A stretch of 32,000 nucleotides of DNA. Source: Candidatus Auribacterota bacterium (lineage in GTDB: Bacteria; Auribacterota; UBA6266). This document shows, piece after piece, positions 12,508 to 32,000 of this stretch (position 1 is its first letter; each line of letters opens with the position of its first letter). Location: positions 1 through 32,000 of the forward strand of contig JAGLRQ010000064.1 in NCBI GenBank assembly GCA_023136205.1. The letters run 5' to 3'. The notes beneath the pieces were generated by a model. That model did not search any database and had not been told where the DNA came from. It saw only the letters and a program-made list of their open reading frames with translations. The translations under genes and the position numbers were made by a program.

Positions 12508-13143
12508 ATGATAAAAATGGCAAAAAGATTTTTAATATTTGCATTATTGTTTTTTGTGAGCGGGTGTGCAACAACCGTGAAAAAAGATTATACAAAGTTT
12601 ATGTCCGCAAACCCCAGGTCTATTTTAATAGTTCCGGTTGTCAATGAAACTGTAGATGTCGATGCGCCTGATTACTTTTTATCTACCATTTCTGTGCCTG
12701 TTTCAGAGCAAGGATATTATGTTTTTCCTGTGCATATGGTAAAGAGAGTGTTGGAGGATGATGGGTTGTCAGATGCGGATTTGGTTCACAGTGCGTCAAC
12801 TGAAAAATTGTGTGAATTATTTGGATCCGATGCTGTCCTGTATATCAAAATTAAGCGTTGGGATGCTCAATATGCGTTAATTGCAACAACGGTAACGGTA
12901 GGACTAGAATATATTATAAAAGATGGGAAAACAGGGGTTGTTTTATGGCAGGAGGACTCTGTAGTGAGATATACCTCTCAAGGTGCCGGCTCCGGGAATT
13001 TGCTGGCGGATGTTATTATAGTGGCAGTGAATGCTGCGATGACTAAAGCAGCACCTAATTATATTCCACTTGCAAAACAGGCAAACGAACAGGTTTTTGT
13101 ATATCCTGGACCTGGAATTCCTCCAGGCCCTTATAAAAAATAA
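12508..13143 (+). CDS. DUF799 (GNA1162-like) lipoprotein
   Basis: Lipobox FVSGC, then RSILIVPVVNETVDVDAPDYFLSTISVPVSEQGYYVFPV. About 210 aa and in the expected position within the CsgG-like cluster. The alternative start is 12517. Confidence 0.65.
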   Translation: MIKMAKRFLIFALLFFVSGCATTVKKDYTKFMSANPRSILIVPVVNETVDVDAPDYFLSTISVPVSEQGYYVFPVHMVKRVLEDDGLSDADLVHSASTEKLCELFGSDAVLYIKIKRWDAQYALIATTVTVGLEYIIKDGKTGVVLWQEDSVVRYTSQGAGSGNLLADVIIVAVNAAMTKAAPNYIPLAKQANEQVFVYPGPGIPPGPYKK

Positions 13144-15632: not shown

Positions 15633-18155
15633 ATGGCAAAAGAAGCAAAAGCTCGTATACGCATAAACAAATATCTTGAAAATGCCGGATGGTGTTTTTT
15701 CGATACGGATACCGCCAAGGCTAATATATGCCTTGAAACAAACGTAAAGATTACCGAGCAAGTTCTTACTGATCTTGGTGAAGATTTTGAGAAAACAAAA
15801 AATGGATTTACTGATTATATTCTTTTAGATGATAAAGGATTTCCTTTTGTGGTTTTAGAGGCAAAAAAAGAGGACAAAGATCCTTTAGCCGGAAAAGAAC
15901 AAGCTCGCAAATATGCCAAAAACCTTAATGTTCGTTTTGTAATTTTATCTAACGGTAACCTTCATTATTTTTGGGATATTGAAACAGGCAATCCGCATAT
16001 CATTACCGCTTTCCCTACATATGAATCATTAACGTACAAAAAATCTTTCAAGCCTAATCCGGACAATCTAGTCCGTGAGTATATTGATTCAGATTATATT
16101 GCCATTACTCAAAAACCAGATTACAAGAGCGATCCTAATTGGATAGATGAGGATAGAAGAAATGATTTTATTATTGATAATAATCTCAAATTCCTAAGAG
16201 ATTATCAGATAAACGCTGTTAAATCTTTGCAAGACGCGGTAAAAGAAAATAAAAATCGATTTCTATTTGAAATGGCAACAGGCACAGGAAAAACGCTTGT
16301 TGCAGCAGGTGTAATTAAGTTATTTTTAAGAACAGGTAATGCAAAAAGGGTGCTTTTTCTTGTTGATAGGTTAGAGTTAGAGGATCAAGCATGGAAAAAT
16401 TTTGTAAAATACCTTAAAAATGATTATAAATCTGTAATTTACAAAGAAAATCGAGGTGATTGGAAAAAAGCTGAAATTGTAGTTTCCACTGTTCAATCAT
16501 TTCTTTTTAATAACAAGTATAAAGATTTATTCTCACCAACTGATTTTGATTTGGTTATATCCGACGAAGCTCATAGGTCGATAGGCGGCAACAGCCGGGC
16601 AGTGTTTGAATATTTCACTGGTTATAAATTAGGGCTCACCGCAACGCCAAAAGATTATTTAAAAAAGATTGACGAAAAGAAATTAGCTGAGAAAGACCCG
16701 CGTAAATTAGAAAGACGTCAGTTGCTTGATACTTACAAAACCTTTGGATGCGAGGCGAGCAATCCAACATTCAGGTATACTCTTTTGGATGGAGTAAAAG
16801 ACGATTATCTCGTAAACCCTATTGTTGTAGATGCCAGAACAGATATAACAACCGAATTGCTTTCAGAAATGGGCTATTCTGTACTAATAGAAAATGAGGA
16901 AGGCGAAGAGGAAGAAAAGACTTATTTCCAAAAGGATTTTGAACGAAAATTCTACTCAGAAAAGACTAACAGGACATTGTGCCGGACATTTTTAGAAAAA
17001 GCACTAAGAGACCCGTTAACTGGCGAGATTGGCAAAAGTATTATTTTTTGCGTTAGCCAAAATCACGCTTCGAAAATCACACAGATACTTAATGAGCTGG
17101 CACATAAGGTTTATCCGGGTAAATACAAATCTGATTTTGCGGTGCAAGTAATATCCCATATTGATGGCTCCCAGCAAATGACAATTAACTTTTCAAACAA
17201 TAATCTAAATGGGCATACAATCTTTAAGGACGGCTATAATTCCAGCAAGACCCGGGTGTGCGTTACCGTAGGGATGATGACAACAGGTTATGATTGTGAG
17301 GATATTTTAAATTTATGCCTAATGCGTCCTATCTTTTCCCCTCAAAATTTTATTCAGATGAAAGGGCGGGGAACCAGAAAATATGATTTTGTTTATAGCG
17401 AAAGAAACGAGCTGGGAAAGATAGAAAAATATGTGGTTAAAAAGGAGAGGTTTAAACTTTTTGATTTCTTTGCCAATTGCGAATATTTTGAAGAAAAATT
17501 TAATTATGATGAAGTTATAGAACTGCCACCGGAAACCGGAAAAGGGCCGGGGCCGTTTCCCCCGCCGTCACCATCGTATGAATATGAAAATACGCGTCTT
17601 GACCCCTTAAAAGAAATTGCCGAGACGCCTATAGGTTTTGAAGGCATGAAAATTGACCGGAAGTTTTTTGAGAAGTTTGAAGAAGTTGTTAAAGGTAATG
17701 AATATGTTAAAGACAAAATTTATGAAGGCAAATACGAAGAAGCCGAAAGCTATATAAAAAGAGAAGTTTTTGATAAACCGGAAGAATATTTTAACCTGGA
17801 TAAATTAAGAAGGTCAGTTAAACTTGACCGCCGGCTAAGTTTGCGTGAAATATTAGAGAAGATATTTGGACGCATTAAAAAATTTAAAACAAAGGATGAT
17901 TTGCTCGAAGAAGAAATTGAAAAATTTATCTCTCTTTATCATCCCGAAAATAAGTTTATTCATATTATACGCCAGTTTATGAAGGCATATATTTTAGATA
18001 CCGAGTTGCGGGAAATTTTGAACTCTAAAGAATATGGCAGGCTTGAAACTAATCCCGGCTTTACAATGAGGGATTTAAAAGAGCTTGATGGGTGGAAAGA
18101 CCCGGTTGTTGAGTATATAAAAGATTATGTGCCATTGAATGCCTTTGCGGCTTAA
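15633..18155 (+). CDS. hsdR: Type I-like restriction enzyme R subunit (PD-(D/E)xK nuclease plus SF2 helicase), short form
   Basis: The N-terminal nuclease motif is FTDY...VVLEAKK. Helicase motif I is EMATGTGKT (16281-16295), II is SDEAH (D311 at 16563), III is LGLTATP and VI is QMKGRGTRK. It lies directly upstream of the methylase/specificity gene. Confidence 0.88.
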   Translation: MAKEAKARIRINKYLENAGWCFFDTDTAKANICLETNVKITEQVLTDLGEDFEKTKNGFTDYILLDDKGFPFVVLEAKKEDKDPLAGKEQARKYAKNLNVRFVILSNGNLHYFWDIETGNPHIITAFPTYESLTYKKSFKPNPDNLVREYIDSDYIAITQKPDYKSDPNWIDEDRRNDFIIDNNLKFLRDYQINAVKSLQDAVKENKNRFLFEMATGTGKTLVAAGVIKLFLRTGNAKRVLFLVDRLELEDQAWKNFVKYLKNDYKSVIYKENRGDWKKAEIVVSTVQSFLFNNKYKDLFSPTDFDLVISDEAHRSIGGNSRAVFEYFTGYKLGLTATPKDYLKKIDEKKLAEKDPRKLERRQLLDTYKTFGCEASNPTFRYTLLDGVKDDYLVNPIVVDARTDITTELLSEMGYSVLIENEEGEEEEKTYFQKDFERKFYSEKTNRTLCRTFLEKALRDPLTGEIGKSIIFCVSQNHASKITQILNELAHKVYPGKYKSDFAVQVISHIDGSQQMTINFSNNNLNGHTIFKDGYNSSKTRVCVTVGMMTTGYDCEDILNLCLMRPIFSPQNFIQMKGRGTRKYDFVYSERNELGKIEKYVVKKERFKLFDFFANCEYFEEKFNYDEVIELPPETGKGPGPFPPPSPSYEYENTRLDPLKEIAETPIGFEGMKIDRKFFEKFEEVVKGNEYVKDKIYEGKYEEAESYIKREVFDKPEEYFNLDKLRRSVKLDRRLSLREILEKIFGRIKKFKTKDDLLEEEIEKFISLYHPENKFIHIIRQFMKAYILDTELREILNSKEYGRLETNPGFTMRDLKELDGWKDPVVEYIKDYVPLNAFAA

Positions 18156-18169
18156 AGGAAAATTACGAT

Positions 18170-20569
18170 ATGCTAACCAACGGAACAAAAAGACGCATTG
18201 ATACAGCAAGGGATATCCTTGTCGGAAAACTCCCTGACCCCAAGACACAGGTTGAACAGATTACCATAGCTCTTATTTATAAATTTATGGACGATATGGA
18301 CAAACAGTCTGAGGAATTGGGAGGAAGACCCAAATTTTTTACCGGTGAATACAAGAAATACTCATGGAGTAAGATTTTCGATCCTCGTGTGAGTGGGCAT
18401 GAACTTGTTGGTTTATATGGCGAAGCTGTTCAGCGGATGAATCAGAATCCGAATATCCCGCAGTTATTTAGGGATATTTTTAAAAATGCTTATTTGCCGT
18501 ATCGTGATCCTGAAACCTTAAAAAGTTTTCTTAAATGTATTGGCGAGTTTGAATATGACCATAGCGAGAAATTAGGAGATGCCTTTGAGTACCTGCTTTC
18601 TGTAATGGGCTCACAAGGCGATGCCGGACAGTTTAGGACGCCCAGACATATTATTGATTTTATAGTGAAGGTGGTTGACCCAGGAAAAAACGAGACTATT
18701 CTTGATCCCGCCTGCGGTACGGCCGGATTCTTGATTTCTTCGTATAAGCATATCTTAGAAAAAAATAAAAAAGACGGCCGGGTACATTTAACTCCAGCTC
18801 AAAAGAAAAGGCTCATTGAAAACTTTTCAGGTTATGATATTTCGCCGGATATGGTGAGATTGTCATTGGTTAATATGTATCTGCACGGGTTTAAGAATCC
18901 CAAAATCTATGAGTATGATACATTAACCTCAGAGGAAAAATGGCAGGAAGTATTTGATGTAATATTAGCAAATCCGCCGTTCATGAGCCCAAAAGGCGGG
19001 ATAAGGCCGCATAAACGGTTTAGTGTGCAGGCAAAGCGTTCGGAGGTGCTTTTTGTTGATTATATTACTGAGCACTTAAATCCTAACGGCCGGGCGGGCA
19101 TTATTGTTCCCGAAGGCATTATCTTTCAGTCAGGCACTGCTTATAAGAAACTGCGCAAGATGTTAGTCGACCGTTCACTTTATGTGGTTGTATCTTTGCC
19201 CGCGGGAGTGTTTAACCCTTACTCCGGAGTTAAGACATCAATATTGATGTTGGATAAAAATTTGGCAAAAAAGACGAATAGGATTTTATTTATAAAAATC
19301 AACAATGATGGCTTTGGGTTGGGCGCACAGAGAAGAGAGGTTAAGGGAAGCGATTTGCCATTGGCTTTAGAAGTAATCACGAGATACAAGCAGAGCATTA
19401 TTGAAAATAAAGAATTTGAGTTCAGTTCTGATGAAGCGAAGCTTGCCTCTCTGGTTGAGCAAACAAAAATCGCAGAAAGTGGAGATTATAATCTTAATGG
19501 TAATCGGTATTCAGTTTCAGAAATAACTACAACAGAATATCCAGTGGTGAAATTAGAGGAAGTGGCGAAGATTATCGCAGGGCAATCGCCAGAAGGAAAA
19601 TATTATAATTCTAAAAGTAAAGGAACTCCTTTTTATCAAGGGAAAACAGATTTTGGGAATATTTATCTTGGCAAACCTAGTAAGTGGACTACACGTGTTA
19701 CTAAGGTCGCTGTTGCTAATGATATTTTGATGTCAGTCAGAGCGCCTGTTGGCCCTGTGAATATTTGTAGCGATAAAATATGTATAGGAAGAGGTCTATC
19801 TGCTATTCACGTTGGAGATAGGATTAATTATAAATATTTATTTTATCTTCTGAAATCTAAAGAAAATGATATTAAAGGCGGTGGTGGTTCTGTCTTTGAT
19901 AGCATAAGTAGAAAACAGATTGAAAATATAAAAATCCCCCTTCCCTCGCTTGAAGTGCAGGAACAGATTATTGCCGAACTGGACAGTTATCAGAAAATAA
20001 TCGAGGGCGCGTGTCAGGTTGTCGAAAACTACAAACCGCATATTGATATTAATCCTGATTGGGAAATGGTGGAGTTTAAAAAAGTTTGTAGCTTTGAATA
20101 TGGAAGTAGTTTACCTTCAAAAAATCGAAAAGGCACTAAATATCCAGTTATGGGATCAAATGGTATTGCTGGTTATCATGATGATTATATAGTAAAAGGC
20201 CCTGCGATTATTATTGGCCGTAAAGGGTCAGCCGGAGAAGTTGTATGGGTTGACTCAAATTGTTTTCCAATTGATACAACATATTATGTTGAGCTGAAAG
20301 ATAAATCATATAGTTTCAAATTTTTATATTTCGTTCTACAAGGTCTTAACTTACCACAATTAAAAGGTGGTGCAGGTATCCCTGGCTTAAACAGAAACGA
20401 TGTATATAGGATATATAAGTTGCCTTATCCGTCCGTTGATATCCAAAAAAGAATTGTTGCCCAGATCGAAAAAGAACAAAAAGCAGTTGAAGCCACAAAA
20501 GATTTAATCACGCTCTTTGAACAAAAAATAAAACAAAAAATCAGAGAGATTTGGGGTAAAGAAAAATGA
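18170..20569 (+). CDS. hsdM: fused Type I methyltransferase-specificity protein (HsdM-HsdS in one polypeptide)
   Basis: The N-terminal ~440 aa hold the HsdM_N region, SAM motif ILDPACGTAGFL and catalytic NPPF (18971-18982). The C-terminal ~350 aa hold two HsdS-type TRDs (VVKLEEVAKIIAGQSP... and MVEFKKVCSFEYGSSLP...). Each TRD is followed by a conserved helix, LPSLEVQEQIIAELD or PSVDIQKRIVAQIEKEQ. Confidence 0.88.
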   Translation: MLTNGTKRRIDTARDILVGKLPDPKTQVEQITIALIYKFMDDMDKQSEELGGRPKFFTGEYKKYSWSKIFDPRVSGHELVGLYGEAVQRMNQNPNIPQLFRDIFKNAYLPYRDPETLKSFLKCIGEFEYDHSEKLGDAFEYLLSVMGSQGDAGQFRTPRHIIDFIVKVVDPGKNETILDPACGTAGFLISSYKHILEKNKKDGRVHLTPAQKKRLIENFSGYDISPDMVRLSLVNMYLHGFKNPKIYEYDTLTSEEKWQEVFDVILANPPFMSPKGGIRPHKRFSVQAKRSEVLFVDYITEHLNPNGRAGIIVPEGIIFQSGTAYKKLRKMLVDRSLYVVVSLPAGVFNPYSGVKTSILMLDKNLAKKTNRILFIKINNDGFGLGAQRREVKGSDLPLALEVITRYKQSIIENKEFEFSSDEAKLASLVEQTKIAESGDYNLNGNRYSVSEITTTEYPVVKLEEVAKIIAGQSPEGKYYNSKSKGTPFYQGKTDFGNIYLGKPSKWTTRVTKVAVANDILMSVRAPVGPVNICSDKICIGRGLSAIHVGDRINYKYLFYLLKSKENDIKGGGGSVFDSISRKQIENIKIPLPSLEVQEQIIAELDSYQKIIEGACQVVENYKPHIDINPDWEMVEFKKVCSFEYGSSLPSKNRKGTKYPVMGSNGIAGYHDDYIVKGPAIIIGRKGSAGEVVWVDSNCFPIDTTYYVELKDKSYSFKFLYFVLQGLNLPQLKGGAGIPGLNRNDVYRIYKLPYPSVDIQKRIVAQIEKEQKAVEATKDLITLFEQKIKQKIREIWGKEK

Positions 20570-21432
20570 CTACTGAGGAAATAGATCAAAGAATTAAAGG
20601 GTTAAGAGATTTAAATTTAAAAAATGAAATGTCCAAAGCTATATTTGAAGAGGTCTGGGATTTAATGAAGATTGGATATAAATGTATACACTTCCCGGGC
20701 TATCATAAATATGTATATCGAGCCAGGAAAAATGAAAAAACAAAAAACAAATTTACGTTTTTTAAACATGTAAAGAAAATATGGTGCCGCAATCCTGAGG
20801 ATGTATTGGATTTTGGACGTGTACATTGGCCAAAACATCCTGTTTTTTATTGTAGCGGTTCATTGAAAACTGCAATATTAGAAATAAAGCCGGATTATCA
20901 CGGCTTAGTTACTGTTATGAGATGTCGGAGGAAAAACTCGCATAAGATTGAATCTGTTGCTTTCGGATTTCCTGATAGAGCAAAATTTATAGACGGAAAA
21001 GGCAAGATAATTAATTGGGGTGAGTATAAAGAAGTAAAAATCGGGTTAAGTAAAGGCCAGGCTCAAAAGAATAATAAAATTGATAGATTTTTGAATGAAG
21101 TCTATCGGGATGAAGATAAAAATATAGACTCGTACGGAGATGATAAATATAAGATTACTGCAGCGATTGCAAAAATGTACTTTGATAATCCTGCTAAGAA
21201 TTCACATAAACTGGATTGTATATGTTATCCCAGCGTTAGTGAAGTGAAAGGGGCTACTAATTATGCTTTTACCAAAAGGGTTGCGGATACGATTTTAGAG
21301 CCGGACAGTTTTTATGTTTTTGAGATATGTCCGGGTGAGAAGTTTGGAAAGTTTGCGCTTAAACTAATTTGTTTTTCTATGAATGTTGATATGACAGGAA
21401 AAATTGCGTGGGAAAATATAATTATAAAATAA
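20566..21432 (+). CDS. RES-domain protein (predicted NAD+-targeting toxin-type enzyme)
   Basis: RES signature read by eye: YRARKNE, then FGRVHWPKHPVFYCSGSLKTAILEI (R85, E106), then CICYPSVSEVKGATNYAF (S223). Its ATG overlaps the hsdMS stop in an ATGA. Confidence 0.7.
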   Translation: MTTEEIDQRIKGLRDLNLKNEMSKAIFEEVWDLMKIGYKCIHFPGYHKYVYRARKNEKTKNKFTFFKHVKKIWCRNPEDVLDFGRVHWPKHPVFYCSGSLKTAILEIKPDYHGLVTVMRCRRKNSHKIESVAFGFPDRAKFIDGKGKIINWGEYKEVKIGLSKGQAQKNNKIDRFLNEVYRDEDKNIDSYGDDKYKITAAIAKMYFDNPAKNSHKLDCICYPSVSEVKGATNYAFTKRVADTILEPDSFYVFEICPGEKFGKFALKLICFSMNVDMTGKIAWENIIIK

Positions 21433-21565: not shown

Positions 21566-22762
21566 ATGATAAAATTGAATCTCGTAAGAGAAATCCGAGA
21601 ACTAAAGAACCAGCTCTCTTATTCGAAAAAATATAGTTTCTTTTTTGGCGCAGGCACATCATGTGCACTTGGCATTCCTAATATAGCTACTTTAACAACA
21701 GAGGTGGAAAAGGCTCTAAAAGATAATTCATTAAATTATTTTAAAAAAATAAAAGAAGATCTAACATCTACATACCCCGATAAAATCATAAATATCGAAG
21801 ATATTCTTAATCAGTTACGCCAAATCAGGTCAATCACTGGGGAAAAAGATGATAAAAGTTATCTGGATATAAGTGGAAAATCAGCAACAGAACTTGATAG
21901 TGAAATTTGCAAAAAAATATATGCTGTCATTAGCACCAGTGAAACAACGGCGGATCTTTCTAATACCAAGAAGTTTTTTGCTTGGTTGAATATGCTAAAT
22001 AGGGATTACTCAAAAGAAATATTTACATCAAATTATGATTTAATTATTGAAAAAGCTCTGGAAGAAATAAAAACTCCATACTTTGATGGATTTGTAGGGT
22101 CATATGAACCTTTCTTTTGGCAGGAAAGTATAGAAAGATTCGTTGATAAGTCTGATTTAACACAAAATTGGATCCGGCTATGGAAGGTTCATGGCTCATT
22201 AAGCTGGTTCTGGAAAAAAAATAGCGAATCAGGTTCTCATAATATCATCCGTGTCGGCATAATCTCAGATATTAAAAATATTGATAATGAACTGGTTATC
22301 TATCCATCAAAAGAAAAATATGATTCTTCAAAGAAGCAGCCGTTTGTCGCTTATTTTGATCGATTAAAAAATGTCCTTTTGAAGGGAGAACTCCTTTTTA
22401 TCTTTACGGGGTATTCATTTTCTGACCAGCATATCAATGAGATTGCATTTAATTCTCTTCGACAAAATAATCGATTATTTATTTTAGTGTTTTTTTATCA
22501 GGACTCTGAAGTGGAAGAATTATTTCGAGTATCTTCATCATACCTAAATTTGACAGTATTTGGCCCTACGAAGGCAATTATAAATGGAACATTAGGTGAG
22601 TGGGAATATAACGAAGACGATTTAAAACCAAACGAGAAGTCAGATAGCTATTGGGATACCGAAAATAAGCAATTGATACTCGGGGATTTTAATCAGCTAA
22701 TTAATTTTCTAATTACAAACTCTGGGAAAAAAGAAAACATAGAGGCAATAGCAAATGGATAG
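21566..22762 (+). CDS. SIR2-family NADase, partner of HerA in the SIR2-HerA defence system
   Basis: SIR2_2-type motifs FFFGAGTSCALGIP, FTSNYDLIIE and WKVHGSLSW (His codon at 22190). A strong SD AAGGAGA precedes it, and it overlaps the downstream HerA gene by 8 nt. Confidence 0.85.
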   Translation: MIKLNLVREIRELKNQLSYSKKYSFFFGAGTSCALGIPNIATLTTEVEKALKDNSLNYFKKIKEDLTSTYPDKIINIEDILNQLRQIRSITGEKDDKSYLDISGKSATELDSEICKKIYAVISTSETTADLSNTKKFFAWLNMLNRDYSKEIFTSNYDLIIEKALEEIKTPYFDGFVGSYEPFFWQESIERFVDKSDLTQNWIRLWKVHGSLSWFWKKNSESGSHNIIRVGIISDIKNIDNELVIYPSKEKYDSSKKQPFVAYFDRLKNVLLKGELLFIFTGYSFSDQHINEIAFNSLRQNNRLFILVFFYQDSEVEELFRVSSSYLNLTVFGPTKAIINGTLGEWEYNEDDLKPNEKSDSYWDTENKQLILGDFNQLINFLITNSGKKENIEAIANG

Positions 22763-24539
22763 TGACATTACCTACCTTGGGAAAATAATACGGGTTGATT
22801 CGAGTACTGTTGAAGTTGAAGTTTCAGATGATATCCCTTCCGCTGCACCAATTATAAACGGTCGTTTATATAAAATTGGACAAATTGGTACTTTTGTAAA
22901 AATGCCAATGGGAAATATTACAACCTATGGAATAGTATCTTCTGTTAGCAATACTCCAGGGAAACCAGATGACAATCAGGCTAGGCAGATTTTTGGATCA
23001 CGTTTTCTTAGCGTTCAGCTTGTCGGTGAAAAAATTGGGGATGATGATTTTGAGAAAGGCATAGGGACGTACCCTACTATTAATGATGCAGTTCATATTG
23101 TAGTTGAAAAGGACTTGTTTAATATATATGGGGAAAAAGATACTGGCTCTATAGAAATAGGAAAGCACTCCTCTTCTGATAATTTATCTGTATGTGTAGA
23201 TATTCATAAACTCATATTGCGTCATTGCGCGATATTAGGTTCTACTGGAAGTGGAAAATCAAATACAACTGTTAGTATTCTTAAGGCAATATTAAACAAT
23301 TATCTTGGTTCAAGAGTTATTTTAGTTGATCCACACGGTGAATATGCTTCAGCATTTCCAGATGCGAAAGTTTATAAAATCAATGATTCTTCCGATCCGT
23401 TGTATATTCCTTTTTGGTTGATGAATTTTGATGAATTGGCATTTTTTCTTGTCGGAGCTAAACCAACTGATGATCAAAGGCCAGAGTATCGATTATTAAG
23501 GGAATGGATAACGGGTTATAAAAAAGAAAATTATCAACTCAAATCAGGTGATGTAAATCGAGACTTTATTACTGCCGATTCGCCAATTCCTTTTAATGCT
23601 AGAAAACTTTGGCATGACATGAACTGGTGGCTGAATGCTACTTTCTCAGAATCTACAAAAGACAAACAAACAAAAGATAATGCGCAATTACAGAAGGATG
23701 AAGATGGCAATCCCAAGAATGGTAATTATGACGAATTAAGACAAGCAGAATTTAAACCCTATCCAATGGGGAGTAATGCACCATATAAATCAAAACACCA
23801 AGATTTTTATTCATATGAAAAAAAGCTTCTATCACGGCTCAAAGATTCTCGGTTTGATTTTATGTTTCATCCTGGAGATTACAAAGATAAATCTTCCTTG
23901 AAGGATTTGCATAATTTGTTAAATGACTGGATAGGAAGTGATAGTAAATTGGTAATACTTGACCTTGGCGGAATCCCATTTGAGGTTTTAGATATTGCAA
24001 TCGGACTAATTACAAGATTTGTGTATGACAGTATGTTTTGGGGGCGGAATGAATCTTACACGGGAAGAAATAGACCTCTTTTGCTTGCTTATGAAGAAGC
24101 TCACACTTATTTGAACAAGAATGATAATAACAGTTATTCAAAAAACGCGGTTGAACGAATTTTTAAAGAAGGTCGTAAATTTGGTGTTGGTGCGTTAGTT
24201 ATATCGCAAAGACCTTCTGAAATTTCAGAAACCATTCTGGCTCAAATTGGAACATTCATAGCTTTGCGATTAACAAATTCAGGAGATCAGTCTATTGTTA
24301 AATCTTCATCACCTGACAATCTAAATAGCTTGATCGATTTATTACCTTCTTTGAGAATTGGTGAGGCCGTTATTGTTGGTGAAGCGATCAAAATACCTTC
24401 TAGAATTAGAGTAAAACTTAATAATCCAAGACCAACGAGTGATGACCCTAAACTTATAGAGTGCTGGAGTAAAACACATTCCACCTCTGATGATAAGTAC
24501 AAATCGGTAGTAACCAAAATAAGAGAACAAAGGAGATAA
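22755..24539 (+). CDS. herA: HerA/FtsK-like (DUF87) hexameric ATPase of the SIR2-HerA defence system
   Basis: 594 aa with an N-terminal HAS-barrel-like region. Walker A is LGSTGSGKSNT (from 23238) and Walker B is PLLLAYEEAH. A C-terminal GRKFGVGALVISQRPS motif is also present. Confidence 0.85.
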   Translation: MDSDITYLGKIIRVDSSTVEVEVSDDIPSAAPIINGRLYKIGQIGTFVKMPMGNITTYGIVSSVSNTPGKPDDNQARQIFGSRFLSVQLVGEKIGDDDFEKGIGTYPTINDAVHIVVEKDLFNIYGEKDTGSIEIGKHSSSDNLSVCVDIHKLILRHCAILGSTGSGKSNTTVSILKAILNNYLGSRVILVDPHGEYASAFPDAKVYKINDSSDPLYIPFWLMNFDELAFFLVGAKPTDDQRPEYRLLREWITGYKKENYQLKSGDVNRDFITADSPIPFNARKLWHDMNWWLNATFSESTKDKQTKDNAQLQKDEDGNPKNGNYDELRQAEFKPYPMGSNAPYKSKHQDFYSYEKKLLSRLKDSRFDFMFHPGDYKDKSSLKDLHNLLNDWIGSDSKLVILDLGGIPFEVLDIAIGLITRFVYDSMFWGRNESYTGRNRPLLLAYEEAHTYLNKNDNNSYSKNAVERIFKEGRKFGVGALVISQRPSEISETILAQIGTFIALRLTNSGDQSIVKSSSPDNLNSLIDLLPSLRIGEAVIVGEAIKIPSRIRVKLNNPRPTSDDPKLIECWSKTHSTSDDKYKSVVTKIREQRR

Positions 24540-24541: not shown

Positions 24542-24754
24542 ATGGACAGAAACAACATTGATTCTTCAATGATTCGGAGCATTGGCTATGACGCAAACAG
24601 CTCTACTCTTGAAATAGAATTCAATAGTGGTGCAATTTGGCAGTATTTTGATTTTCCAGAATCATCTTGGTGTGAGTTCAATACCTCAGATTCTAAAGGA
24701 AAGTTTTTTCTTCGAGAAATAAAAAAGCAATATTCTGAATCGCAAGTTGGATGA
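24542..24754 (+). CDS. KTSC-domain small protein
   Basis: 70 aa. IRSIGYDANSSTLEIEFNSGAIWQYFDFPESSW matches the KTSC domain pattern. SD AAGGAG is present and the start lies 2 nt after the HerA stop. Confidence 0.7.
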   Translation: MDRNNIDSSMIRSIGYDANSSTLEIEFNSGAIWQYFDFPESSWCEFNTSDSKGKFFLREIKKQYSESQVG

Positions 24755-24804: not shown

Positions 24805-25017
24805 CGGATGAGTTTGGTTAGGTGGATAGTTGGGGATAAGTACATTGTGTTTATCCTGTTAATATAGAGTAATAAGAACATTTGATTTATACATGAATTG
24901 GTAAACATATAAAATGGATGACCTTAGAAAACAAGAGGGAGTTAAGCCCAGCTGCACAAACCAGTGCTACAGTTTGCCACACACTTGTTTAGTCCATCTA
25001 TCAGGATTATAATAACG

Positions 25018-25482
25018 ATGACACAAGAAATGACAGAACTCAAAATATTCTTTGATTTGCCAAAGACTTTTGAGATACAGAACATTAAGCCCCTTATGGG
25101 GCTGACGGGATTGTATTTTATTTTCAATGGAAAGACAAAAATTCAATATCCTTTCAAGAAATCGCGACTGCTATACATTGGAATGAGCGAGAAAAAAACA
25201 AACAGCATAGGGAGCCGTCTAGCAGGTCATTTTGAAGGAAAAAGTAAAAACGTTGGAATTGTCAACTATAGAAAAACTAAACAGTTGTTTTTTACCTACA
25301 TCAATTTCGAGATGCTTCGCAAATTCTGGAACCACAGAATAGAAGACCTTGAAAGCTACTTCATTCTGGACTTTGTTGAGAAGTACGGAGTTTATCCCAT
25401 TTGTAACAATAAGTCTGGTTACGAAATATTGAACAAAAAACTAAACGCCAATTTTATTATAGATTGGTTATATTTTGAATAA
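25018..25482 (+). CDS. GIY-YIG nuclease-superfamily protein
   Basis: GLYFIF ... LLYIGMS ... SRLAGH ... EDLESYFILDF ... PICNNKSG fits the GIY / YIG / Arg / Glu / Asn order. The start is uncertain: the track uses GTG 24964, I prefer ATG 25018, and neither has an SD. Confidence 0.65.
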   Translation: MTQEMTELKIFFDLPKTFEIQNIKPLMGLTGLYFIFNGKTKIQYPFKKSRLLYIGMSEKKTNSIGSRLAGHFEGKSKNVGIVNYRKTKQLFFTYINFEMLRKFWNHRIEDLESYFILDFVEKYGVYPICNNKSGYEILNKKLNANFIIDWLYFE

Positions 25483-25493
25483 ACACTTAAGTT

Positions 25494-25703
25494 ATGAATA
25501 AAAAAATAAAAAGTGGTAAAGATGTCATTGATGAGTTCTTCTCAGAAATTCTAAATATAGAAGACGTTGACCAAAAGACAGTGGAAAAGCTGGTTGAATT
25601 GTATAAAGAGAATAACCTAACTGACAGAAAGATTCAGAACGCATTAGAGGAACTGAAACAAGCAGAACTTAATTCAAAAGCGCGAAACGATGGCAAAGAT
25701 TAA
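25494..25703 (+). CDS. 69-aa charged, predicted all-helical protein of unknown function
   Basis: It starts 11 nt after the GIY-YIG stop and overlaps the downstream ATPase start by 14 nt, implying co-translation. No motif recognised. Confidence 0.5.
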   Translation: MNKKIKSGKDVIDEFFSEILNIEDVDQKTVEKLVELYKENNLTDRKIQNALEELKQAELNSKARNDGKD

Positions 25704-28098
25704 ATCAATCAATATAAGCGGAATAAGAGGTGTTAAAGACCTTTTGACACTTGACATCAACAAGAAATCCATTTTGATTTATGGCGACAATGGAACAGGA
25801 AAGAGTTCTCTGACTGATGCCTTTGAATGGTTATTTTACGATCGTATTGGTCATTTATCCAATGAAGAAATTGGAAGAAAAGGTCGAGACGCCTTAAGAA
25901 ACATTTTCGTTCCAGGCAATGAAGATGGTTATATCGAAATCAAGTTTGATAATAACAAACTGGACATAAAAAAGTCAATCGACAGTTCGATAAGTGCTTC
26001 TACTTCTAACATATCAGATGAATTCAATGACTTTATTGCCGCCTCACAATCCGAAAATCTTATTCTTCGCTACCGTGACTTAGTGCAATTTATTATTGCG
26101 AGCAAAACCGAGAAACTAACAAAACTGCAAAACATTATTGGCTTTTCAGAGGTCGCTGATGTCAGGAGCTTACTGAAGAAGAATGCCGGACGAATTGCCC
26201 GCAATATCAAATCTTCTAATTATGACAACCAAAAGAATGTGAAGCAATCAATAATACTTGAAAACCTTGGGAGAAATGCCCATTCAGATGAGCAACTTTT
26301 TGAAGGAGCGAATGAACTCATTAAGCCATTGAAGCTTGGTATCGAAATTAAATCTCGTGAGGATATAAAGAAAGTTTTAAAGAAAATTGAGACCAAAGAG
26401 GACAACGCTTTACTTGAACAAATCAACTTTTTCACAAGAATGTGGGAGGTCTTATCAGAAGTTGTTGGAAATGTTGACAATATTCATGAAAGCTACAAAT
26501 CATATCACACCATTGGCAAAGAGTTGAAAAAAGACCCAGAGAAGATTAAGAAATTGCAGCTGCTTGCTCTTTTGAAAGAAGGCCAGTCAGTTCTTAAGAA
26601 TGATGTTGTGCAGGACAACTATTGCCCACTTTGTCAACAAGAAAAGAGCAAGGTTCAACTAATTCAAGAGTTGAACAAAAGAATTGAGGAATTGGAACAA
26701 CTTGCTGAAGAGAAGAACAAATTAGATGAGCAGGCAGAAGAACTTGAACAATTGATTCAGCCAAACATTAACATGATAGACAGTTTGCTAAGGGAGAAGC
26801 TATTTAAGAAGGATAAATACGAAAAATTGAAAAGTCAGATTGCAGAAGTCAAGAAATCATTAAACAGCTTTCTTTATGAGCTTAAAAAAGGTTTATCGGT
26901 TGCTTTTGCAGAGCCAGGCAAAATCAAGATTGATAAAAACGAATTTTATATAATTGTCAAGCAATCACAAGATACCGCAAAAATTCTTACGGAAAATCAA
27001 TCATCAAACATAAAGTTCCAGATTTATACTAAGTTGTCCCAAGCGGTAACTGCTTATGAAGAATATCAAAGAATAGAAAAAGAGCAAGGCATCCTAAGCA
27101 GGCAGCAAGTTACGTTTGAAGGGCTTTATGCTGATTTCATAAAAAGACAAGAAGAAGCCCTCAACGTATTCCTGACAATGTTCTCTCAAGACATCGATGA
27201 CTATTATACAACTATGAACCCCAACGAGAGAGTTGAGGACATAAAACTTGTGCCAATCAAAAAAGATGGTGATTTGGTAGGAATTACTATTGAATGCAGC
27301 TTTTTTGATGAGGCTAAAACTTTTCCAATTGCTTATTTGAGCGAAAGTCATCTCAATTGTCTTGGACTTTCGTTCTTTTTAGCTTCTGTCAAAGCATTTA
27401 ACAAGGAGAACGAATTTTTCATATTGGATGATATTATATCCAGTTATGACAGGTCTCACCGAGCAAGATTTGCTAAGCTGTTGACCGAAAAATTCTCTGA
27501 CTACCAAGTTATTCTTTTAACCCATGAACAAGAGTTCTTTGAACTGGTGTCCAGTGATGTAAAGAACAAAGGATGGTCAATTAAGAATTTCAAGTGGACA
27601 AAAAATAGTGGTGCAGGTGTAGAAAAAGGAACGGTTAAAATCAAAGAACGAATTCTTAAGAAATTTAAAGAGAAGAATATAGATGGTCTTGGTAATGATA
27701 TCAGAGTTTATACGGAGAAGGTTATGAAAGAAGTCGCATTTAATATAGAAGCCCCTGTAGCATTCCGATATAATGCACTTAATGAGAAGCGAATGGCCCC
27801 AGAATTATTGAATGCTGTTCAAAGTCGAATTTCAAAAAAAGGAAATGGGCTAAAAGAGAAGGCCAACATTACAAGGGTGAAAGGTATGCCTATGTTCATT
27901 GGAAATACGACTTCTCACGACAACGAATTCAATGAGAGTATTGAGGACTTGGAAGTGATGTGGGAAAATATTGAGAACATGATCCGCACATTTTACTGTA
28001 ACAGTTGTAGGAAGTTTATGTCAGTTAAGTATTTCGACAATGTAGAGAGTAAAATCAGGTGTGGATGTGGTAATCTGACCTATGATTGGGAAAAATGA
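25690..28098 (+). CDS. Rad50/SbcC-like ABC ATPase with coiled-coil zinc hook and RloC/PrrC-like C-terminal region plus zinc ribbon
   Basis: Walker A YGDNGTGKSS starts at 25783. A long heptad-rich insert carries CPLC (C312-C315, 26623-26634). Walker B/D-loop is FFILDDIISSYD (about 27424) and the H-loop is LLTHEQEF. The C-terminus has R672-x3-E676, then TSH743D, then C770xxC773...C791xC793. Confidence 0.75.
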   Translation: MAKIKSINISGIRGVKDLLTLDINKKSILIYGDNGTGKSSLTDAFEWLFYDRIGHLSNEEIGRKGRDALRNIFVPGNEDGYIEIKFDNNKLDIKKSIDSSISASTSNISDEFNDFIAASQSENLILRYRDLVQFIIASKTEKLTKLQNIIGFSEVADVRSLLKKNAGRIARNIKSSNYDNQKNVKQSIILENLGRNAHSDEQLFEGANELIKPLKLGIEIKSREDIKKVLKKIETKEDNALLEQINFFTRMWEVLSEVVGNVDNIHESYKSYHTIGKELKKDPEKIKKLQLLALLKEGQSVLKNDVVQDNYCPLCQQEKSKVQLIQELNKRIEELEQLAEEKNKLDEQAEELEQLIQPNINMIDSLLREKLFKKDKYEKLKSQIAEVKKSLNSFLYELKKGLSVAFAEPGKIKIDKNEFYIIVKQSQDTAKILTENQSSNIKFQIYTKLSQAVTAYEEYQRIEKEQGILSRQQVTFEGLYADFIKRQEEALNVFLTMFSQDIDDYYTTMNPNERVEDIKLVPIKKDGDLVGITIECSFFDEAKTFPIAYLSESHLNCLGLSFFLASVKAFNKENEFFILDDIISSYDRSHRARFAKLLTEKFSDYQVILLTHEQEFFELVSSDVKNKGWSIKNFKWTKNSGAGVEKGTVKIKERILKKFKEKNIDGLGNDIRVYTEKVMKEVAFNIEAPVAFRYNALNEKRMAPELLNAVQSRISKKGNGLKEKANITRVKGMPMFIGNTTSHDNEFNESIEDLEVMWENIENMIRTFYCNSCRKFMSVKYFDNVESKIRCGCGNLTYDWEK

Positions 28099-28226
28099 AA
28101 TGGAGTCTAATTAGTATAATTTGAACACTTCCCATATTGTTGAAAAATTCCCTTACTCTCCTTCCCATTGTAACCACCTTTCTTCCGTGCTAAAATATTT
28201 GAATGAAACAGGCTGAAAAAATGAAT

Positions 28227-28374
28227 CCCCCCAGATTTGCATTAGCAAATTTAACAGGGGGACTAGCAAAGATGGAGGGGAACTGGTGGAATGATGCCCC
28301 TAGATTTGTATTAGCAAATCTAGCAGGGGGACTTTATCCCCCTAGATTTTGCAAATCTGACCAGGGGGACTAGC
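28227..28374 (+). repeat. three tandem copies of a ~41-nt imperfect palindrome (CCCCC-TAGATTTG...CAAATCTA-n-GGGGGAC)
   Basis: Copies lie at 28227-28267, 28297-28333 and 28338-28374, and each folds into a hairpin of 12-13 bp. In copy 3 the G-run (28364-28368) is also the only SD-like sequence for the GTG at 28375. Confidence 0.85.
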
Positions 28375-29355
28375 GTGTACGAAATTGACCCGCATAACAA
28401 GATCATCTTCACAAAAACAGGAAGAAAATCAAAACTTCCCAAATACAGAGAAGTTATTGACGGCAGAATCAAAATAGATAAAAACAACTCTTTTATCTAC
28501 CATGTAAAACAACCTCAGGATTCCAAAGTTCCTCAGCAGATTAAACTTTCAGGAAAATGGTCTTTAAATAAAAACCATGACCTTGTGCTTACCTTAGATA
28601 AGAAGCATAAGATGTATGCCGGAGATAAGCTCACAATAAAAGGTGAGATAAAAGACGCGAAAGCAAATAAGCTGGTGTTCTCTGTTGCCGCAAAAGACGG
28701 TTTGAGTCAATACCTGGGATATATTTTAAACCTTAGCGGCAGCTGGCAGGCTGATAAGTATAACCGCCTGACGTTCAACGTAAAAAGAAACAAAGGCGCA
28801 ACAGATGTATTAACTTTTAAGGGTGGCTGGAGCATTAATAAACAGAACCAGATTATTTATACTTATGAAAAAGCACATTTAAAAACTAAGGAGAAGATAA
28901 CAAAGACTATAAGACTCAAAGGGCATTGGAACATAACAGAGAAACACAGGATTTTATACGTTTTAAATAAAAAAATAGATTCACAATTTGATTTTAAAGT
29001 AAGCCTGGGAAAACCGCTTAAAAGAGGACTGCAGTACGAAATAGGGATAGGAAGTGTTCCTTCTAGGGAAAAGATAAATCTTTTCGGTGAATGGAAGGTA
29101 AATAAAAGATTAGGAGTTCTCTTTGAAATGCCGTATGAAAAAGAAAAACTCAAAAGGATTGTCTTTGGAGCAAGCTGTAGGCTGGGCGAGAACAGCACCG
29201 TTGAGTTTAAACTGAAAAATAAACGAGGGCAAGATATGGGAATGGATATTCAGCTTTCAAAGAAAATATTGAAAAGCCAGGGGGCTCTTTTCCTGCGCGC
29301 TATCACATCAAAAAAAGAGAAGCAATTTTTAATCGGCGGCGGGTGGAGGTGGTAG
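28375..29355 (+). CDS. beta-hairpin repeat protein of unknown function
   Basis: About ten ~30-aa repeats of the form h.h.G.W.hN..N.h.F are visible. Examples are KLSGKWSLNKNHDLVLTL, NLSGSWQADKYNRLTFNV, TFKGGWSINKQNQIIYTY, RLKGHWNITEKHRILYVL and NLFGEWKVNKRLGVLFEM. It starts at GTG, shows no signal peptide and ends in GGGWRW. Confidence 0.6.
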   Translation: MYEIDPHNKIIFTKTGRKSKLPKYREVIDGRIKIDKNNSFIYHVKQPQDSKVPQQIKLSGKWSLNKNHDLVLTLDKKHKMYAGDKLTIKGEIKDAKANKLVFSVAAKDGLSQYLGYILNLSGSWQADKYNRLTFNVKRNKGATDVLTFKGGWSINKQNQIIYTYEKAHLKTKEKITKTIRLKGHWNITEKHRILYVLNKKIDSQFDFKVSLGKPLKRGLQYEIGIGSVPSREKINLFGEWKVNKRLGVLFEMPYEKEKLKRIVFGASCRLGENSTVEFKLKNKRGQDMGMDIQLSKKILKSQGALFLRAITSKKEKQFLIGGGWRW

Positions 29356-29768
29356 AAAAGAATGGAGCCAACTGATAAAATGATTGGTTTTAGATAAAAC
29401 AATTTTTATCCTAAAAGGTCACCTAAAAAAATAGGTTCCTAACTTCCGCAACTGCAAGAAGTTACAAAACTCTCTAAAATCCCCCCTTGACATTTATTTG
29501 TTTTTGTAAAGAATGGTAGTATTCATCTGTGATAAATTCAGCGTTTGGCTAATGTCCCATATAATATATTTAAAATAATCTATCTAATCCTAAAAGAAAG
29601 ATTTTTTACATGACATTAAGGCGTCTCATTAACCCTTACCCTCTTTATTCCTCAAATAAAAACTATAGTATTGATTTCAAATTTGCTGATACCTATTATT
29701 TACAAAAAAAGCATTATGTGAGAGAAACTAACAGTTTTGAATAAATAATTTATCAGAAAGGAAAATCT

Positions 29769-32000
29769 ATGCAAAAAACAAAAAGCATAATTTCAGTCTT
29801 TATACTTTCTTTTATATCTCTAATCCTAAACTCCTCAGCAGTTTTGGCAGTTGATGTTGATATGGAAGCAGGCACTACTGCCACTTATACTTTAACGGTT
29901 AAAAACATTGGTATTGTTCCTATGACCGATATAGGGGGAGAAGCTTCCATAGTAAGTTTAGGCCAACACGGCAAATTTTCCATCAAAAAGGGCAAATTTT
30001 CCATTTCTTCGATTTCTGAGGGAAATGAAGCTATTGTGAAATTTCAAGTTACAGCGCCTCCCCAGCCCGATCCGGAAAATCCTATAATTATGAAGGGTGA
30101 AGCAACTTTTACTATAACAAAGGTAAAAGATCAAGACGGCAAGAAAGCTCCTTTTATTTGTACTGATGGGAAAGATACAATTAGCGCTGATCCGACGTTT
30201 ATCCAACGTACAAGAAAAGCTATTATTACCGCAGGTGGCGGTAGCCCAATAAATTCATATAACAAGTATTATAATTATCCGCTGCCTCAAGAAATTTCTG
30301 TTAATCCATCTTTACCAAATGATATTTCCATATATTATATGTACCGGTTTACATCTTTCGATATGGAAGCGCAGATTACAATATCTGAAGGATCCTTGTC
30401 GGAAGATACTGTGATAGCCATAAATAATACAGATAAATCAAATATTGAGATCCAGTTAGTCAAAGCCCAATATGACACTGAGCTATCGGCCTATAATCAG
30501 GGGATTAAATCCGAAGTTAATACTTCTATCAACATTGATACCCAGTCCTATATAAATGAAGCAGTAACAAGAGGTATGGATGAACAGACTGTTACGGATT
30601 ACATTAACAATACCATTTCAACTGCTCAAAATAATCTAAATACTGCAATTGATAATTTGATTAATACCACCCACAACACATTACTTCCAGCTTTAGAACC
30701 TGTTAATGTCCAGATAAGCAGTAAGGTAGGCGCAGTTATTAATGATGTCATTGTTAAAGAAAATCAGTTTATCAGAGATAGAGAAGATGCTATTCAAAAA
30801 GCCCAAGTGGAAAACAATATAGATGATTTAGCCGCACAACTTGAAGCTAACGGCGCCTCAGAGGAAATTATTAATCAAATCCAAGAGGAAGCAGAAGAAA
30901 AAGCCGAATCCCAATCAGCTATAGCTATAAGCCTCTTGGAAGCCTCTAAATTTAACGATATAAAAACACTTCACGATGATGGAAATCTTTTTATCCAAAA
31001 CTTAATCTTTGACACTAATAAAACTGTTACTTCGAAAAATAATACTTTAAGACAGCAAATTCTTGATGGAAAAGACAATTCTCAATCCAATGCTGAAAAG
31101 GATATTATCACCTATATCAGAGGTATTACCGATACTGTTTTATCCATAGCACAGATTAGTTTTCCCGTCGAAGCTCAAAGTATATCAGATGCCGTTAATT
31201 TTAGCGGTACGGCCTCTGATGAAAATATAAAGGAATATACCTTAAGTTATTTTGATGGCGCCAACTGGAATATTGTCAATAACTCCATTACTTCAGTTAC
31301 TAACTCCGCATTGGGCATCTGGAATACTAATACTGTAGCTAATGGTAACTATCCTGTTAGGCTAAGGGTAGTAGATACTGCTGGCAATGTAAGCAAGGCT
31401 ACTATTAATGTAACGGTTAACAATCAGGACTTAACTGTACCGGTTATTACCATAGCTTCTCCGGCCTCGGGGGAAGAATCGGCCGGTGTTATAACTATCA
31501 ATGGTTCTATCACCGAGAACTATTTATCCAGTTACATAGTAGAATACTTCACAGAAGAAGAACCTGAAAACTGGATCCAGATAGGCAGCACTCATAAAGT
31601 GATTGATTCCTCAGGCATCTTAGCTTCTTTCAGCCCATTATTATTATCTAAAGGCAATCATACCCTTAGAATAACTGCTACCGACACAAGCAATAATTCC
31701 TCAAACCAGACGATAACTGTAAATACTGGTCACAAATTCAACAACACAGGCGGGCAGCTCTATGCCGCTAACACCTTAGCAGATGACAGGAGGTTAGAAT
31801 TTGCCTATAAATCATTTGATTTTAAGCCCAATAATCTAATGCTTAATCAACCCGCAGTCATTAAACTTCACTACACAGATGAGGAACTCAGTGACCGCGG
31901 TTATGAAGAAAATTTATTAAACATCTTTTTGTATGATGAAGAAACTTTTACATGGGAGGTAATCTCAACGCAAATTGATTTTGAAAACAATGTTCTAACG
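29769..32000 (+). CDS. large secreted/cell-surface protein with CARDB-like N-terminal domain, helical middle and tandem Ig-like domains (3' end outside the window)
   Basis: I translated it by hand from ATG 29769. The frame stays open for 744 codons to the window edge, so it is absent from the ORF track. The signal peptide is MQKTKSIISVFILSFISLILNSSAVLA. Ig-like repeats end in ...NYPVRLRVVDTAGNVSKATINVTV and ...GNHTLRITATDTSNNSSNQTITVNT. Confidence 0.75.
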   Translation, partial: MQKTKSIISVFILSFISLILNSSAVLAVDVDMEAGTTATYTLTVKNIGIVPMTDIGGEASIVSLGQHGKFSIKKGKFSISSISEGNEAIVKFQVTAPPQPDPENPIIMKGEATFTITKVKDQDGKKAPFICTDGKDTISADPTFIQRTRKAIITAGGGSPINSYNKYYNYPLPQEISVNPSLPNDISIYYMYRFTSFDMEAQITISEGSLSEDTVIAINNTDKSNIEIQLVKAQYDTELSAYNQGIKSEVNTSINIDTQSYINEAVTRGMDEQTVTDYINNTISTAQNNLNTAIDNLINTTHNTLLPALEPVNVQISSKVGAVINDVIVKENQFIRDREDAIQKAQVENNIDDLAAQLEANGASEEIINQIQEEAEEKAESQSAIAISLLEASKFNDIKTLHDDGNLFIQNLIFDTNKTVTSKNNTLRQQILDGKDNSQSNAEKDIITYIRGITDTVLSIAQISFPVEAQSISDAVNFSGTASDENIKEYTLSYFDGANWNIVNNSITSVTNSALGIWNTNTVANGNYPVRLRVVDTAGNVSKATINVTVNNQDLTVPVITIASPASGEESAGVITINGSITENYLSSYIVEYFTEEEPENWIQIGSTHKVIDSSGILASFSPLLLSKGNHTLRITATDTSNNSSNQTITVNTGHKFNNTGGQLYAANTLADDRRLEFAYKSFDFKPNNLMLNQPAVIKLHYTDEELSDRGYEENLLNIFLYDEETFTWEVISTQIDFENNVLT

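Follow-up and report, generated by a model that had tools for sequence, protein, structure and literature searches.

Three co-directional genes in a 32,000-nucleotide (nt) stretch of DNA from a Candidatus Auribacterota bacterium (contig JAGLRQ010000064.1, positions 1 to 32,000 of the forward strand, hereafter the window) probably constitute a self-contained and horizontally mobile defence operon, built on the plan of the Lamassu or ABC-three-component (ABC-3C) systems, as judged from their sequences and by analogy with those systems. The first gene, g1 (25018-25482, on the plus strand like the other two), encodes a divergent stand-alone GIY-YIG-type nuclease of 154 amino acids (aa), the putative effector of the system. 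It is followed by g2 (25494-25703), an open reading frame (ORF) for a 69-aa helical 'middle' protein, and by g3 (25690-28098), which encodes an 802-aa LmuB-type zinc-hook coiled-coil ATPase of the ATP-binding cassette (ABC) class with a C-terminal tail. An earlier note, made from the letters of this DNA, had singled out the trio as a candidate conflict module, and its ORFs and their tight spacing, with an 11-nt gap between g1 and g2 and a 14-nt overlap between g2 and g3, were reconfirmed in our analysis. The ORF of g1 opens at a GTG at position 24964, and the ATG at 25018 is preferred as its start, in keeping with homologues of about 154 aa. In the existing annotation, PGAP labels g1 a 'GIY-YIG nuclease family protein', and g3 appears on the Candidatus Auribacterota contig as an 'AAA family ATPase'.

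Conservation of the trio across bacterial phyla

Metagenomes were scanned with the family alignment and single homologues were looked up as well, for a total of 96 loci. Synteny was counted in the 78 of them where at least 720 nt of DNA precede the ATPase gene. Among these 78 loci, in which identity of g3 ranges from 39 to 100%, g1 was kept in 76, g2 in 76 and both of them in 75, in the same order, which bears out the idea of the earlier note that the trio is a conserved and co-inherited module. Such a figure is far beyond chance and rules out a chance neighbourhood. Moreover, a divergent g2 of 58 aa (locus L076), missed by tblastn, was seen in the ORF list and brings the count for this gene to 77 of 78. 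The same trio was recovered again by a reverse search starting from g1 homologues, and a scan of a genome collection gave five loci, none of them with the SIR2, HerA or KTSC neighbours of the window; all four of those with upstream DNA retain g1 and g2 in the same order.

Altogether, the ATPase is represented by at least 560 clusters at 90% identity and g1 by 1,541 homologues, uniformly of about 154 aa, and the trio has been co-inherited across at least six bacterial phyla. Its distribution over these phyla is patchy, with 65-86% identity between copies from different phyla. In loci with only 39-43% identity in g3, identity is still 61-70% in g1 and 33-48% in g2, the latter being the fastest-evolving gene of the three. 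The only two loci where g1 is absent have a transposase standing in its place: an ISL3 transposase at positions 6304-7545 of a Scalindua metagenome-assembled genome (MAG; L007), and a 619-aa transposase of an insertion sequence (IS) at 988-2847 of locus L051, which replaces g1 and g2 and ends just 5′ of g3. In Draconibacterium orientale (L113) the whole trio lies between two 1.8-kb repeats of IS91 type that are 99.9% identical (4093-5795 and 9361-11063), and its g3 carries a frameshift near residue 662.

We also looked for a conserved fourth gene upstream or downstream, and no such neighbour cluster was found in the related loci. The KTSC gene that precedes the trio in the window was considered for this role and rejected, as it lies directly upstream of g1 in only three of 65 distinct loci. 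A near-identical copy of the three genes occurs on a 2,013-bp contig (JAGLOC010000233.1, L014) binned as a 'Candidatus Heimdallarchaeota' MAG. The exact match of its g2 had prompted the idea of an archaeal origin, which is ruled out by the presence in the window of tig-clpP-clpX-lon and of outer-membrane proteins and by the match of its proteins to a 41.5-kb contig of Candidatus Auribacterota; the Heimdallarchaeota copy is probably a binning error and not an archaeal occurrence.

The g3 ATPase

By its sequence, g3 is a zinc-hook ABC protein of the SMC/Rad50 type and closest to LmuB. Conservation of its motifs was followed in two sets of homologues, one with 119 close relatives, across which the motif residues are invariant, and another with 54 diverse members reaching down to 21% identity, to which the following data refer. 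The Walker A motif GDNGTGKS (25783-25806) has an invariant G32, with G37, K38 and S39 conserved in at least 90% of the members. At the apex of the coiled coil, halfway between the two lobes of the head, we find the zinc hook CPLC (26623-26634, aa 312-315), with C312, P313 and C315 invariant, followed by the ABC signature LSESH (27337-27351; S551 and E552 invariant) and by a Walker B motif FFILDD (27415-27432), a hhhhDD version without catalytic Glu in which both D580 and D581 are invariant. The D-loop IISSYD comes after Walker B within 27415-27450, and its D587 is again invariant. The nucleotide-binding head of g3 is intact. All the motifs read in this protein by the earlier note, namely Walker A, CPLC, Walker B, R672/E676/H743 and a Cys ribbon, are in frame at their positions. 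The coiled-coil insert of about 500 aa that it described has to be shortened: the distance from Walker A to Walker B is indeed 544 aa, but the coiled coil itself covers only about 285-350 aa, because the Rad50/SMC lobes align to residues ~1-175 and ~460-620.

The Pfam and PADLOC scans proposed by the earlier note were carried out and place g3 with SMC_N and LmuB, not with AAA_13. In Pfam, g3 matches SMC_N (8.8e-15) and AAA_23, whereas AAA_13, which we take to be the family holding RloC and PrrC, gives no match at E ≤ 0.1. Nine of ten distant members are likewise without it, and the remaining one matches weakly (6.7e-5, below the cut-off) over the region of the signature and Walker B. Consequently, g3 is not a member of the RloC/PrrC family by sequence. 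The best PADLOC model is LmuB PDLC03859 (E 5e-26), which covers residues 3-636 of g3 with positions 4-608 of a profile of 611. LmuB models match 51-52 of the 54 diverse members, with a best value of 4e-32; the mad3 model is level with them in count (52 of 54), with a best E of only 4e-20, and the PDC-S06, PtuA and AriA models rank behind LmuB across the same members. When the family profile was compared with PDB sequences, the heads of SMC3, Rad50 and SMC1 were matched at ~1e-13.

The g1 nuclease and the small g2 protein

The assignment of g1 as a GIY-YIG protein stood in part. Convergent weak evidence favours it, but the Pfam score is under the cut-off: GIY_YIG_2 matches g1 with E 0.0074 and 16.7 bits against the 22.4 required. 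When members of the family were scanned singly, GIY_YIG_2 was returned for 42 of 43 and PF01541 for 26 of 43, all of them sub-threshold (best 6.9e-4), and no other enzyme family appeared in these 43 scans. The family profile found no match among PDB sequences. An AlphaFold2 model of g1 (predicted local distance difference test, pLDDT, 73; predicted template modelling score, pTM, 0.73) has a core with strands at 31-37 and 51-57 and then a helix at 63-72, the expected strand-strand-helix arrangement. Among the viral structures of BFVD, this model matched endonuclease, GIY-YIG and intron-endonuclease proteins with probabilities of 0.96-0.69 and E values of 0.024-0.12, and among PDB entries it reached T4 EndoII only at E ~2. 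Residues Y33, G55, R67, H71, E109, E112, N130 and N131 are invariant in the family and Y53 nearly so, which gives, in order, the set G-L-Y33, Y53-I-G55, R67, H71, E109/E112 and N130/N131; we presume that these residues map onto the catalytic positions of I-TevI-type enzymes. On sequence grounds, g1 keeps the GIY-YIG catalytic residues, and the protein is essentially one GIY-YIG domain with no additional domain.

The small g2 protein has 96 homologues of 58-83 aa, which share the conserved segment SGKDVIDEFFxEI. We also considered g2 as a PDB relative of LmuC, SbcD or Mre11, and none was found in this database.

The C-terminal tail of g3

Beyond the end of the LmuB profile, g3 continues with a tail of about 160 aa (residues ~645-802) comprising a family-specific helical domain (aa 645-765, 27622-27984) and a C4 zinc ribbon CNSC...CGC with the pattern CxxC-x17-CxC (27997-28068). 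The helical domain carries an invariant R672-x3-E676 (27703-27717) and, further on, N739-x2-S742-H743 (27904-27918), where S742 and H743 are invariant. A comparison of 26 tails at 23-54% identity left R, E, S, H and two Cys as the sole invariant residues, and the invariance of the Arg, Glu and Ser-His positions holds down to 21% identity. The general pattern can be written as G-N-x-x-R-x-[YFW]-x-E-x-x-L-K, then 64-68 residues, and then N-x-x-S-H-[DHN]. In the ribbon, C770 and C791 are invariant and C773 and C793 are conserved in at least 90% of the 54 members. The ribbon was confirmed because Pfam scans of the tails member by member, several of which match ribbon families, return zinc-ribbon models; of HEPN models these scans reached DUF4145 alone, in two members at E 0.057.

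A search with the tail profile through 1.84 billion representative proteins gave 204 clusters. In the full-length matches the tail is always C-terminal, in proteins of 790-820 aa, and the possibility that it is a module shared with other architectures was rejected, as only the ~800-aa proteins of the g3 family or their fragments were matched. A Pfam and PHROG scan of the tail gave no match, AAA_13 at E ≤ 10 included. Metal-independent RNases typically have an Arg/Glu/His set, and for this reason an RNase function of the tail appears plausible, if somewhat short of probable, on the basis of its sequence and of a structural model considered below. We regard the tail as a candidate metal-independent RNase (HEPN- or RloC-like) or, alternatively, as a candidate regulatory domain.

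Genomic context

The left part of the window is occupied by tRNA-Gly, tig, clpP, clpX, lon, a serA-like gene, purA and outer-membrane genes. At about 13.9 kb the GC content falls from 0.405 in this housekeeping part to 0.359 in an island that contains, in order, a PLD-like nuclease, a type I-like restriction-modification (R-M) set, a RES-like protein, a SIR2-HerA pair, a KTSC gene and the trio. The PLD-like (HKD) nuclease of 382 aa with a C-terminal helix-turn-helix (13920-15068) marks the left edge of the island. The R-M set and the RES-like gene follow at 15633-21432, starting with an 840-aa HsdR-like helicase and continuing with a 799-aa protein, in which an N6-methyltransferase is fused to two specificity domains, and with a 288-aa protein that has a short RES-domain match. 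This type I-like R-M set lies 4 kb upstream of the trio in the window and is not present at the other loci. Immediately upstream of the module there is a defence pair of SIR2 (398 aa) and HerA (594 aa) with an 8-nt overlap (21566-24539), recognised by PADLOC at 3.5e-129 and 5.9e-155, respectively.

The KTSC gene of 70 aa (24542-24754; Pfam 2.8e-23) begins 2 nt after HerA, and g1 follows 263 nt downstream of it. At L074 (2114-2329) and L076 (263-478), two loci with a g3 of ~41% identity, a KTSC gene shares 11 nt with the beginning of g1; KTSC may thus be an occasional accessory gene. A second family of small ORFs of ~57-75 aa ('ITVQFSTGEIYLYTY') is located 47-98 nt 5′ of g1 in three loci (L018 1774-1947, L029 3042-3269 and L035 199-426); these ORFs look KTSC-like by eye, and neither a Pfam scan nor the hidden Markov model (HMM) of KTSC gave a match. 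More generally, the flanks are heterogeneous among the related loci and often contain defence or mobility genes. Other copies adjoin Shedu, toxin-antitoxin genes and Fic, or an integrase and DNA methyltransferases, or AbiJ/caspase-like and WYL genes.

Within the 263-nt gap 5′ of g1, a consensus scan detected a promoter-like site on the plus strand (24886-24915, 9 of 12 matches), a possible promoter of the operon. Such sites are consensus matches only, and the 17 found in the region are not clearly in excess over the 12.2 ± 2.5 of shuffled sequences. Just 3′ of g3 a 40-nt G/C-clamped hairpin with ends CCCCC...GGGGG occurs twice, at a distance of 69 nt (28225-28264 and 28294-28333; direct repeat D1, 88% identical), and a terminator scan gave a terminator-like hairpin at 28326-28341. 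The 40-nt repeat may be a terminator or an element similar to the repetitive extragenic palindromes. An ORF at 28203-28373 is spurious, its repeated peptide being caused by the two 40-nt copies. No RNA gene was found inside the module; the sole one of the window is tRNA-Gly at 54-129.

Further downstream, positions 28375-29355 encode an internally repetitive protein of 326 aa with weak lipocalin-like and DUF7840 matches only. In the last ~2.6 kb (29400-32000), where the GC skew changes sign, no complete ORF of at least 90 aa is listed; the list holds complete ORFs, and one running past the end of the window would not appear in it. In the housekeeping part, a cluster of CsgG-like, DUF4810 and GNA1162-like lipoprotein genes (10852-13143) sits between genes for small outer-membrane beta-barrels; it belongs to a housekeeping envelope context and is unrelated to the trio.

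A proposed mechanism and its alternatives

In the solved Lamassu complexes, an LmuB dimer restrains a monomeric effector, which stays inactive until the sensing of DNA ends. By analogy, two g3 chains would dimerise via their zinc hook, and the GIY-YIG nuclease g1 would be kept inactive on the ATPase together with g2, through g2 and/or through the tail. The heads of g3 would sense DNA ends or replication intermediates of phages or plasmids, as in those complexes, and the binding or slow hydrolysis of ATP might then alter the assembly in such a way that g1 is released or activated and cuts DNA, so that the infected cell would die or arrest (abortive infection). Less firmly, the tail could be a further nuclease, namely an RNase independent of metal and akin to RloC/PrrC (HEPN-like), with tRNA or other RNA as its target. 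Alternatively, it could replace the missing docking domain of LmuA by holding g1 or g2.

Several observations weigh against this proposal. For a swappable effector, g1 is unusually well conserved, more so than g2 or g3. Its product consists of the 154-aa GIY-YIG domain only and leaves no space for the C-terminal docking domain of LmuA; none of the PADLOC LmuA models matched it, the sole match in that collection being a weak one to PDC-M57B (5e-4). For g2 there was no match in Pfam or PADLOC, LmuC included, and the protein is much smaller than a typical LmuC, a component described as too diverse for sequence methods. When PDB sequences were searched with the g3 family profile, the matches listed (E up to 0.015) included no solved LmuB chain, so the link to LmuB rests on the PADLOC HMMs at ~90 bits. 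At the sensitivity used, no genuine family member was found on the viral contigs of IMG/VR, and support from phage hotspots is therefore missing. As for the tail, neither profile nor per-member scans linked its sequence to HEPN or PrrC, or, apart from the zinc-ribbon models, to anything in Pfam or the PDB. The canonical HEPN motif Rx4-6H is absent from it, with G/A/S/T instead of R at position -5 from the His and a conserved Asn at -4. Its AlphaFold2 model, obtained from a shallow alignment, comprises a helical domain and a small ribbon at low confidence (pLDDT 58). About 10 of the 38 PDB matches listed by Foldseek for this model are HEPN proteins, among them SsR10/2q00 (probability 0.80), a HepT toxin, Csm6′ and AF_0298 (2hsb), all of them non-significant at E > 1.

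The resemblance of the tail to RloC opens an alternative, which we judge unlikely, in which g3 would be in essence an RloC-like anticodon nuclease. The head and hook would sense DNA damage, the tail would be the principal effector, cutting tRNA, and g1 and g2 would be accessories, for example with g1 creating or processing the DNA signal and g2 acting as inhibitor or adaptor. The published description of RloC gives the motif R-X3-E-X36-52-H, often with Ser before the His, and reports that the 804-aa Geobacillus protein cannot do without any one of R692, E696 and H737; the tails of RloC and PrrC have been classed as HEPN domains. The earlier note, which saw in g3 the architecture of RloC, had quoted it correctly, and the two plans are nearly superimposable: the G. 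kaustophilus protein has 804 aa, Cys291 and R692/E696/H737, and g3 has 802 aa, C312 and R672/E676/S742-H743. Moreover, the Arg/Glu/Ser-His set is invariant across the g3 family, the tail is helical in its model with HEPN proteins enriched among the fold matches, and one distant member matches AAA_13, if weakly. Several points speak against the RloC assignment. Neither g3 nor the other nine distant members match AAA_13, the tail alone matches nothing and lacks any profile link, and the spacing from Glu to His is 64-68 in every member versus the published 36-52. LmuB models match g3 far better than anything else does. In addition, g3 is practically never found without g1 and g2, whereas RloC has been described as a stand-alone gene, and the position of g1 as the most conserved component is hard to square with an accessory role. 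What the earlier note called RloC translationally coupled to its partners would be described more aptly as an ATPase similar to LmuB whose tail is possibly RloC-like.

It is very improbable that the trio is a selfish addiction or mobility cassette promoting its own maintenance or spread, with the GIY-YIG protein as homing or toxin nuclease and g2 as antidote. GIY-YIG is certainly a classic fold of homing endonucleases, and the top fold matches of g1 are intron-associated endonucleases, but g1 is without a DNA-recognition domain of the sort that homing enzymes carry, and no part in homing or in classical toxin-antitoxin pairs is known for SMC-like ATPases of 800 aa. The IS91-type repeats that bracket the trio in Draconibacterium, the integrases or IS elements that adjoin it elsewhere and its very high sequence conservation across phyla would fit such a cassette. 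Mobility does not discriminate between the two readings, however, since defence systems commonly ride such elements, and the trio is inserted at differing sites with differing flanks, no target gene being conserved.

A housekeeping repair complex, analogous to SbcCD/Rad50-Mre11 and acting on host hairpins or breaks with the GIY-YIG nuclease in the place of SbcD, has marginally less to recommend it still: the g3 head is as near to the heads of Rad50 and SMC as to any solved protein, a zinc hook is present, PHROG returns an SbcC-like match (1.6e-14), some sources name the homologues SbcC, and repair nucleases such as UvrC and Slx1 are found among the GIY-YIG enzymes, but this reading has against it the patchy cross-phylum spread at 65-86% identity, the variable neighbourhoods rich in defence and mobility genes, the disruption of the module in several genomes by IS elements or by a frameshift, the low-GC island, the Walker B DD without catalytic Glu, the short coiled coil and the absence of an SbcD/Mre11 domain from the window, as the earlier note had remarked, and from the upstream regions of the related loci. 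An ordinary SbcC with its SbcD is ruled out by the absent SbcD, the Walker B DD and the mobile contexts.

Comparison with known systems

The coupling of an ABC ATPase sensor to a separate or fused nuclease is a feature that the trio shares with PARIS (AriAB), Septu (PtuAB), Gabija and OLD. In part of the g3 family, AriA and PtuA give weaker PADLOC matches, confined to the P-loop region. The ATPases of these four systems are without such a zinc-hook coiled coil, and their nucleases are of the Toprim or HNH type. With SbcCD and Rad50-Mre11, the trio has in common a gene for a zinc-hook coiled-coil ABC ATPase adjoining a nuclease gene, and the heads align. The differences lie in the tail domain of g3, in its Walker B DD instead of DE, in a much shorter coiled coil, in the absence of an Mre11/SbcD phosphoesterase and in a spread that is mobile and patchy where SbcCD is housekeeping.

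The likeness to RloC comprises an ABC head split by a coiled coil with a CxxC hook, then a helical domain bearing Arg-x3-Glu and Ser-His, and also the proposed logic of a DNA-sensing head controlling a C-terminal RNase. The C4 zinc ribbon of g3 is extra with respect to RloC and PrrC. In addition, the PrrC gene lies within a type I R-M locus, and in 75 of 78 loci both g1 and g2 stand before g3. The trio is not placed in the RloC/PrrC family because its ATPase does not match AAA_13 and is not a stand-alone gene.

The analogy with Lamassu and ABC-3C put forward in the earlier note held up, as the order of effector, small middle gene and SMC-like ATPase is the same and, for the g3 family as a whole, no defence family is matched better than LmuB. 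Long LmuB proteins have been described with ~800 aa, a Walker B hhhhDD and always one CxxC hook, and short ones with hhhhD[QSTE] (PMC12663957); with its FFILDD and single CPLC hook, g3 resembles the long type. The defence-island context of the trio is a further likeness, as is the nuclease nature of its effector, comparable with the Cap4, Mrr or HNH nucleases of many Lamassu systems. Derivation of Lamassu from SbcCD has been proposed. In described systems, LmuA consists of an N-terminal effector domain and a conserved C-terminal one, by which it docks on LmuB/LmuC, and PADLOC models recognise in the trio the ATPase alone, as LmuB, with no LmuA or LmuC partner. The trio is not placed in Lamassu because an LmuA is lacking, and we file it as a member of neither Lamassu nor RloC/PrrC. 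There are more differences: g2, of 58-83 aa in its family, is without similarity to LmuC; the ABC and coiled-coil part of g3, with ~640 aa, has the length of a short LmuB, and the 802 aa are reached via the tail and not via longer coils; and described LmuB proteins have not been reported to carry such a 160-aa tail, with its zinc ribbon and conserved polar residues. The GIY-YIG fold does not appear in the published lists of Lamassu/ABC-3C effectors, PMC12663957 among them, and the GIY-YIG defence systems of a 2024 survey (PD-T4-3, PD-Lambda-1 and Uzume) are all single-gene. In agreement with the earlier note, which knew of no such combination, no description of the trio was found in the literature covered, where the original ABC-3C paper, which may mention it, is not included. 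The trio is most likely an undescribed relative of Lamassu.

If confirmed, this relative would add a widespread branch to the family of SMC-based immunity, extend the effector repertoire of Lamassu to GIY-YIG and indicate that the docking domain of LmuA is dispensable or can be relocated. With its 154, 69 and 802 aa, the trio would also be a compact system for learning how a zinc-hook ATPase licenses a nuclease. A bolder and doubtful possibility is that of a dual-nuclease sensor bridging Lamassu and RloC, in which one LmuB-like ATPase would control a GIY-YIG DNase in trans and an RloC/HEPN-like RNase tail in cis. Were it true, an SMC-like DNA sensor would trigger the destruction of DNA and of tRNA or other RNA at once, and the stand-alone RloC and the multi-gene Lamassu would be the two ends of one continuum, a proposed kinship that the invariant Arg/Glu/Ser-His tail makes testable by point mutants.

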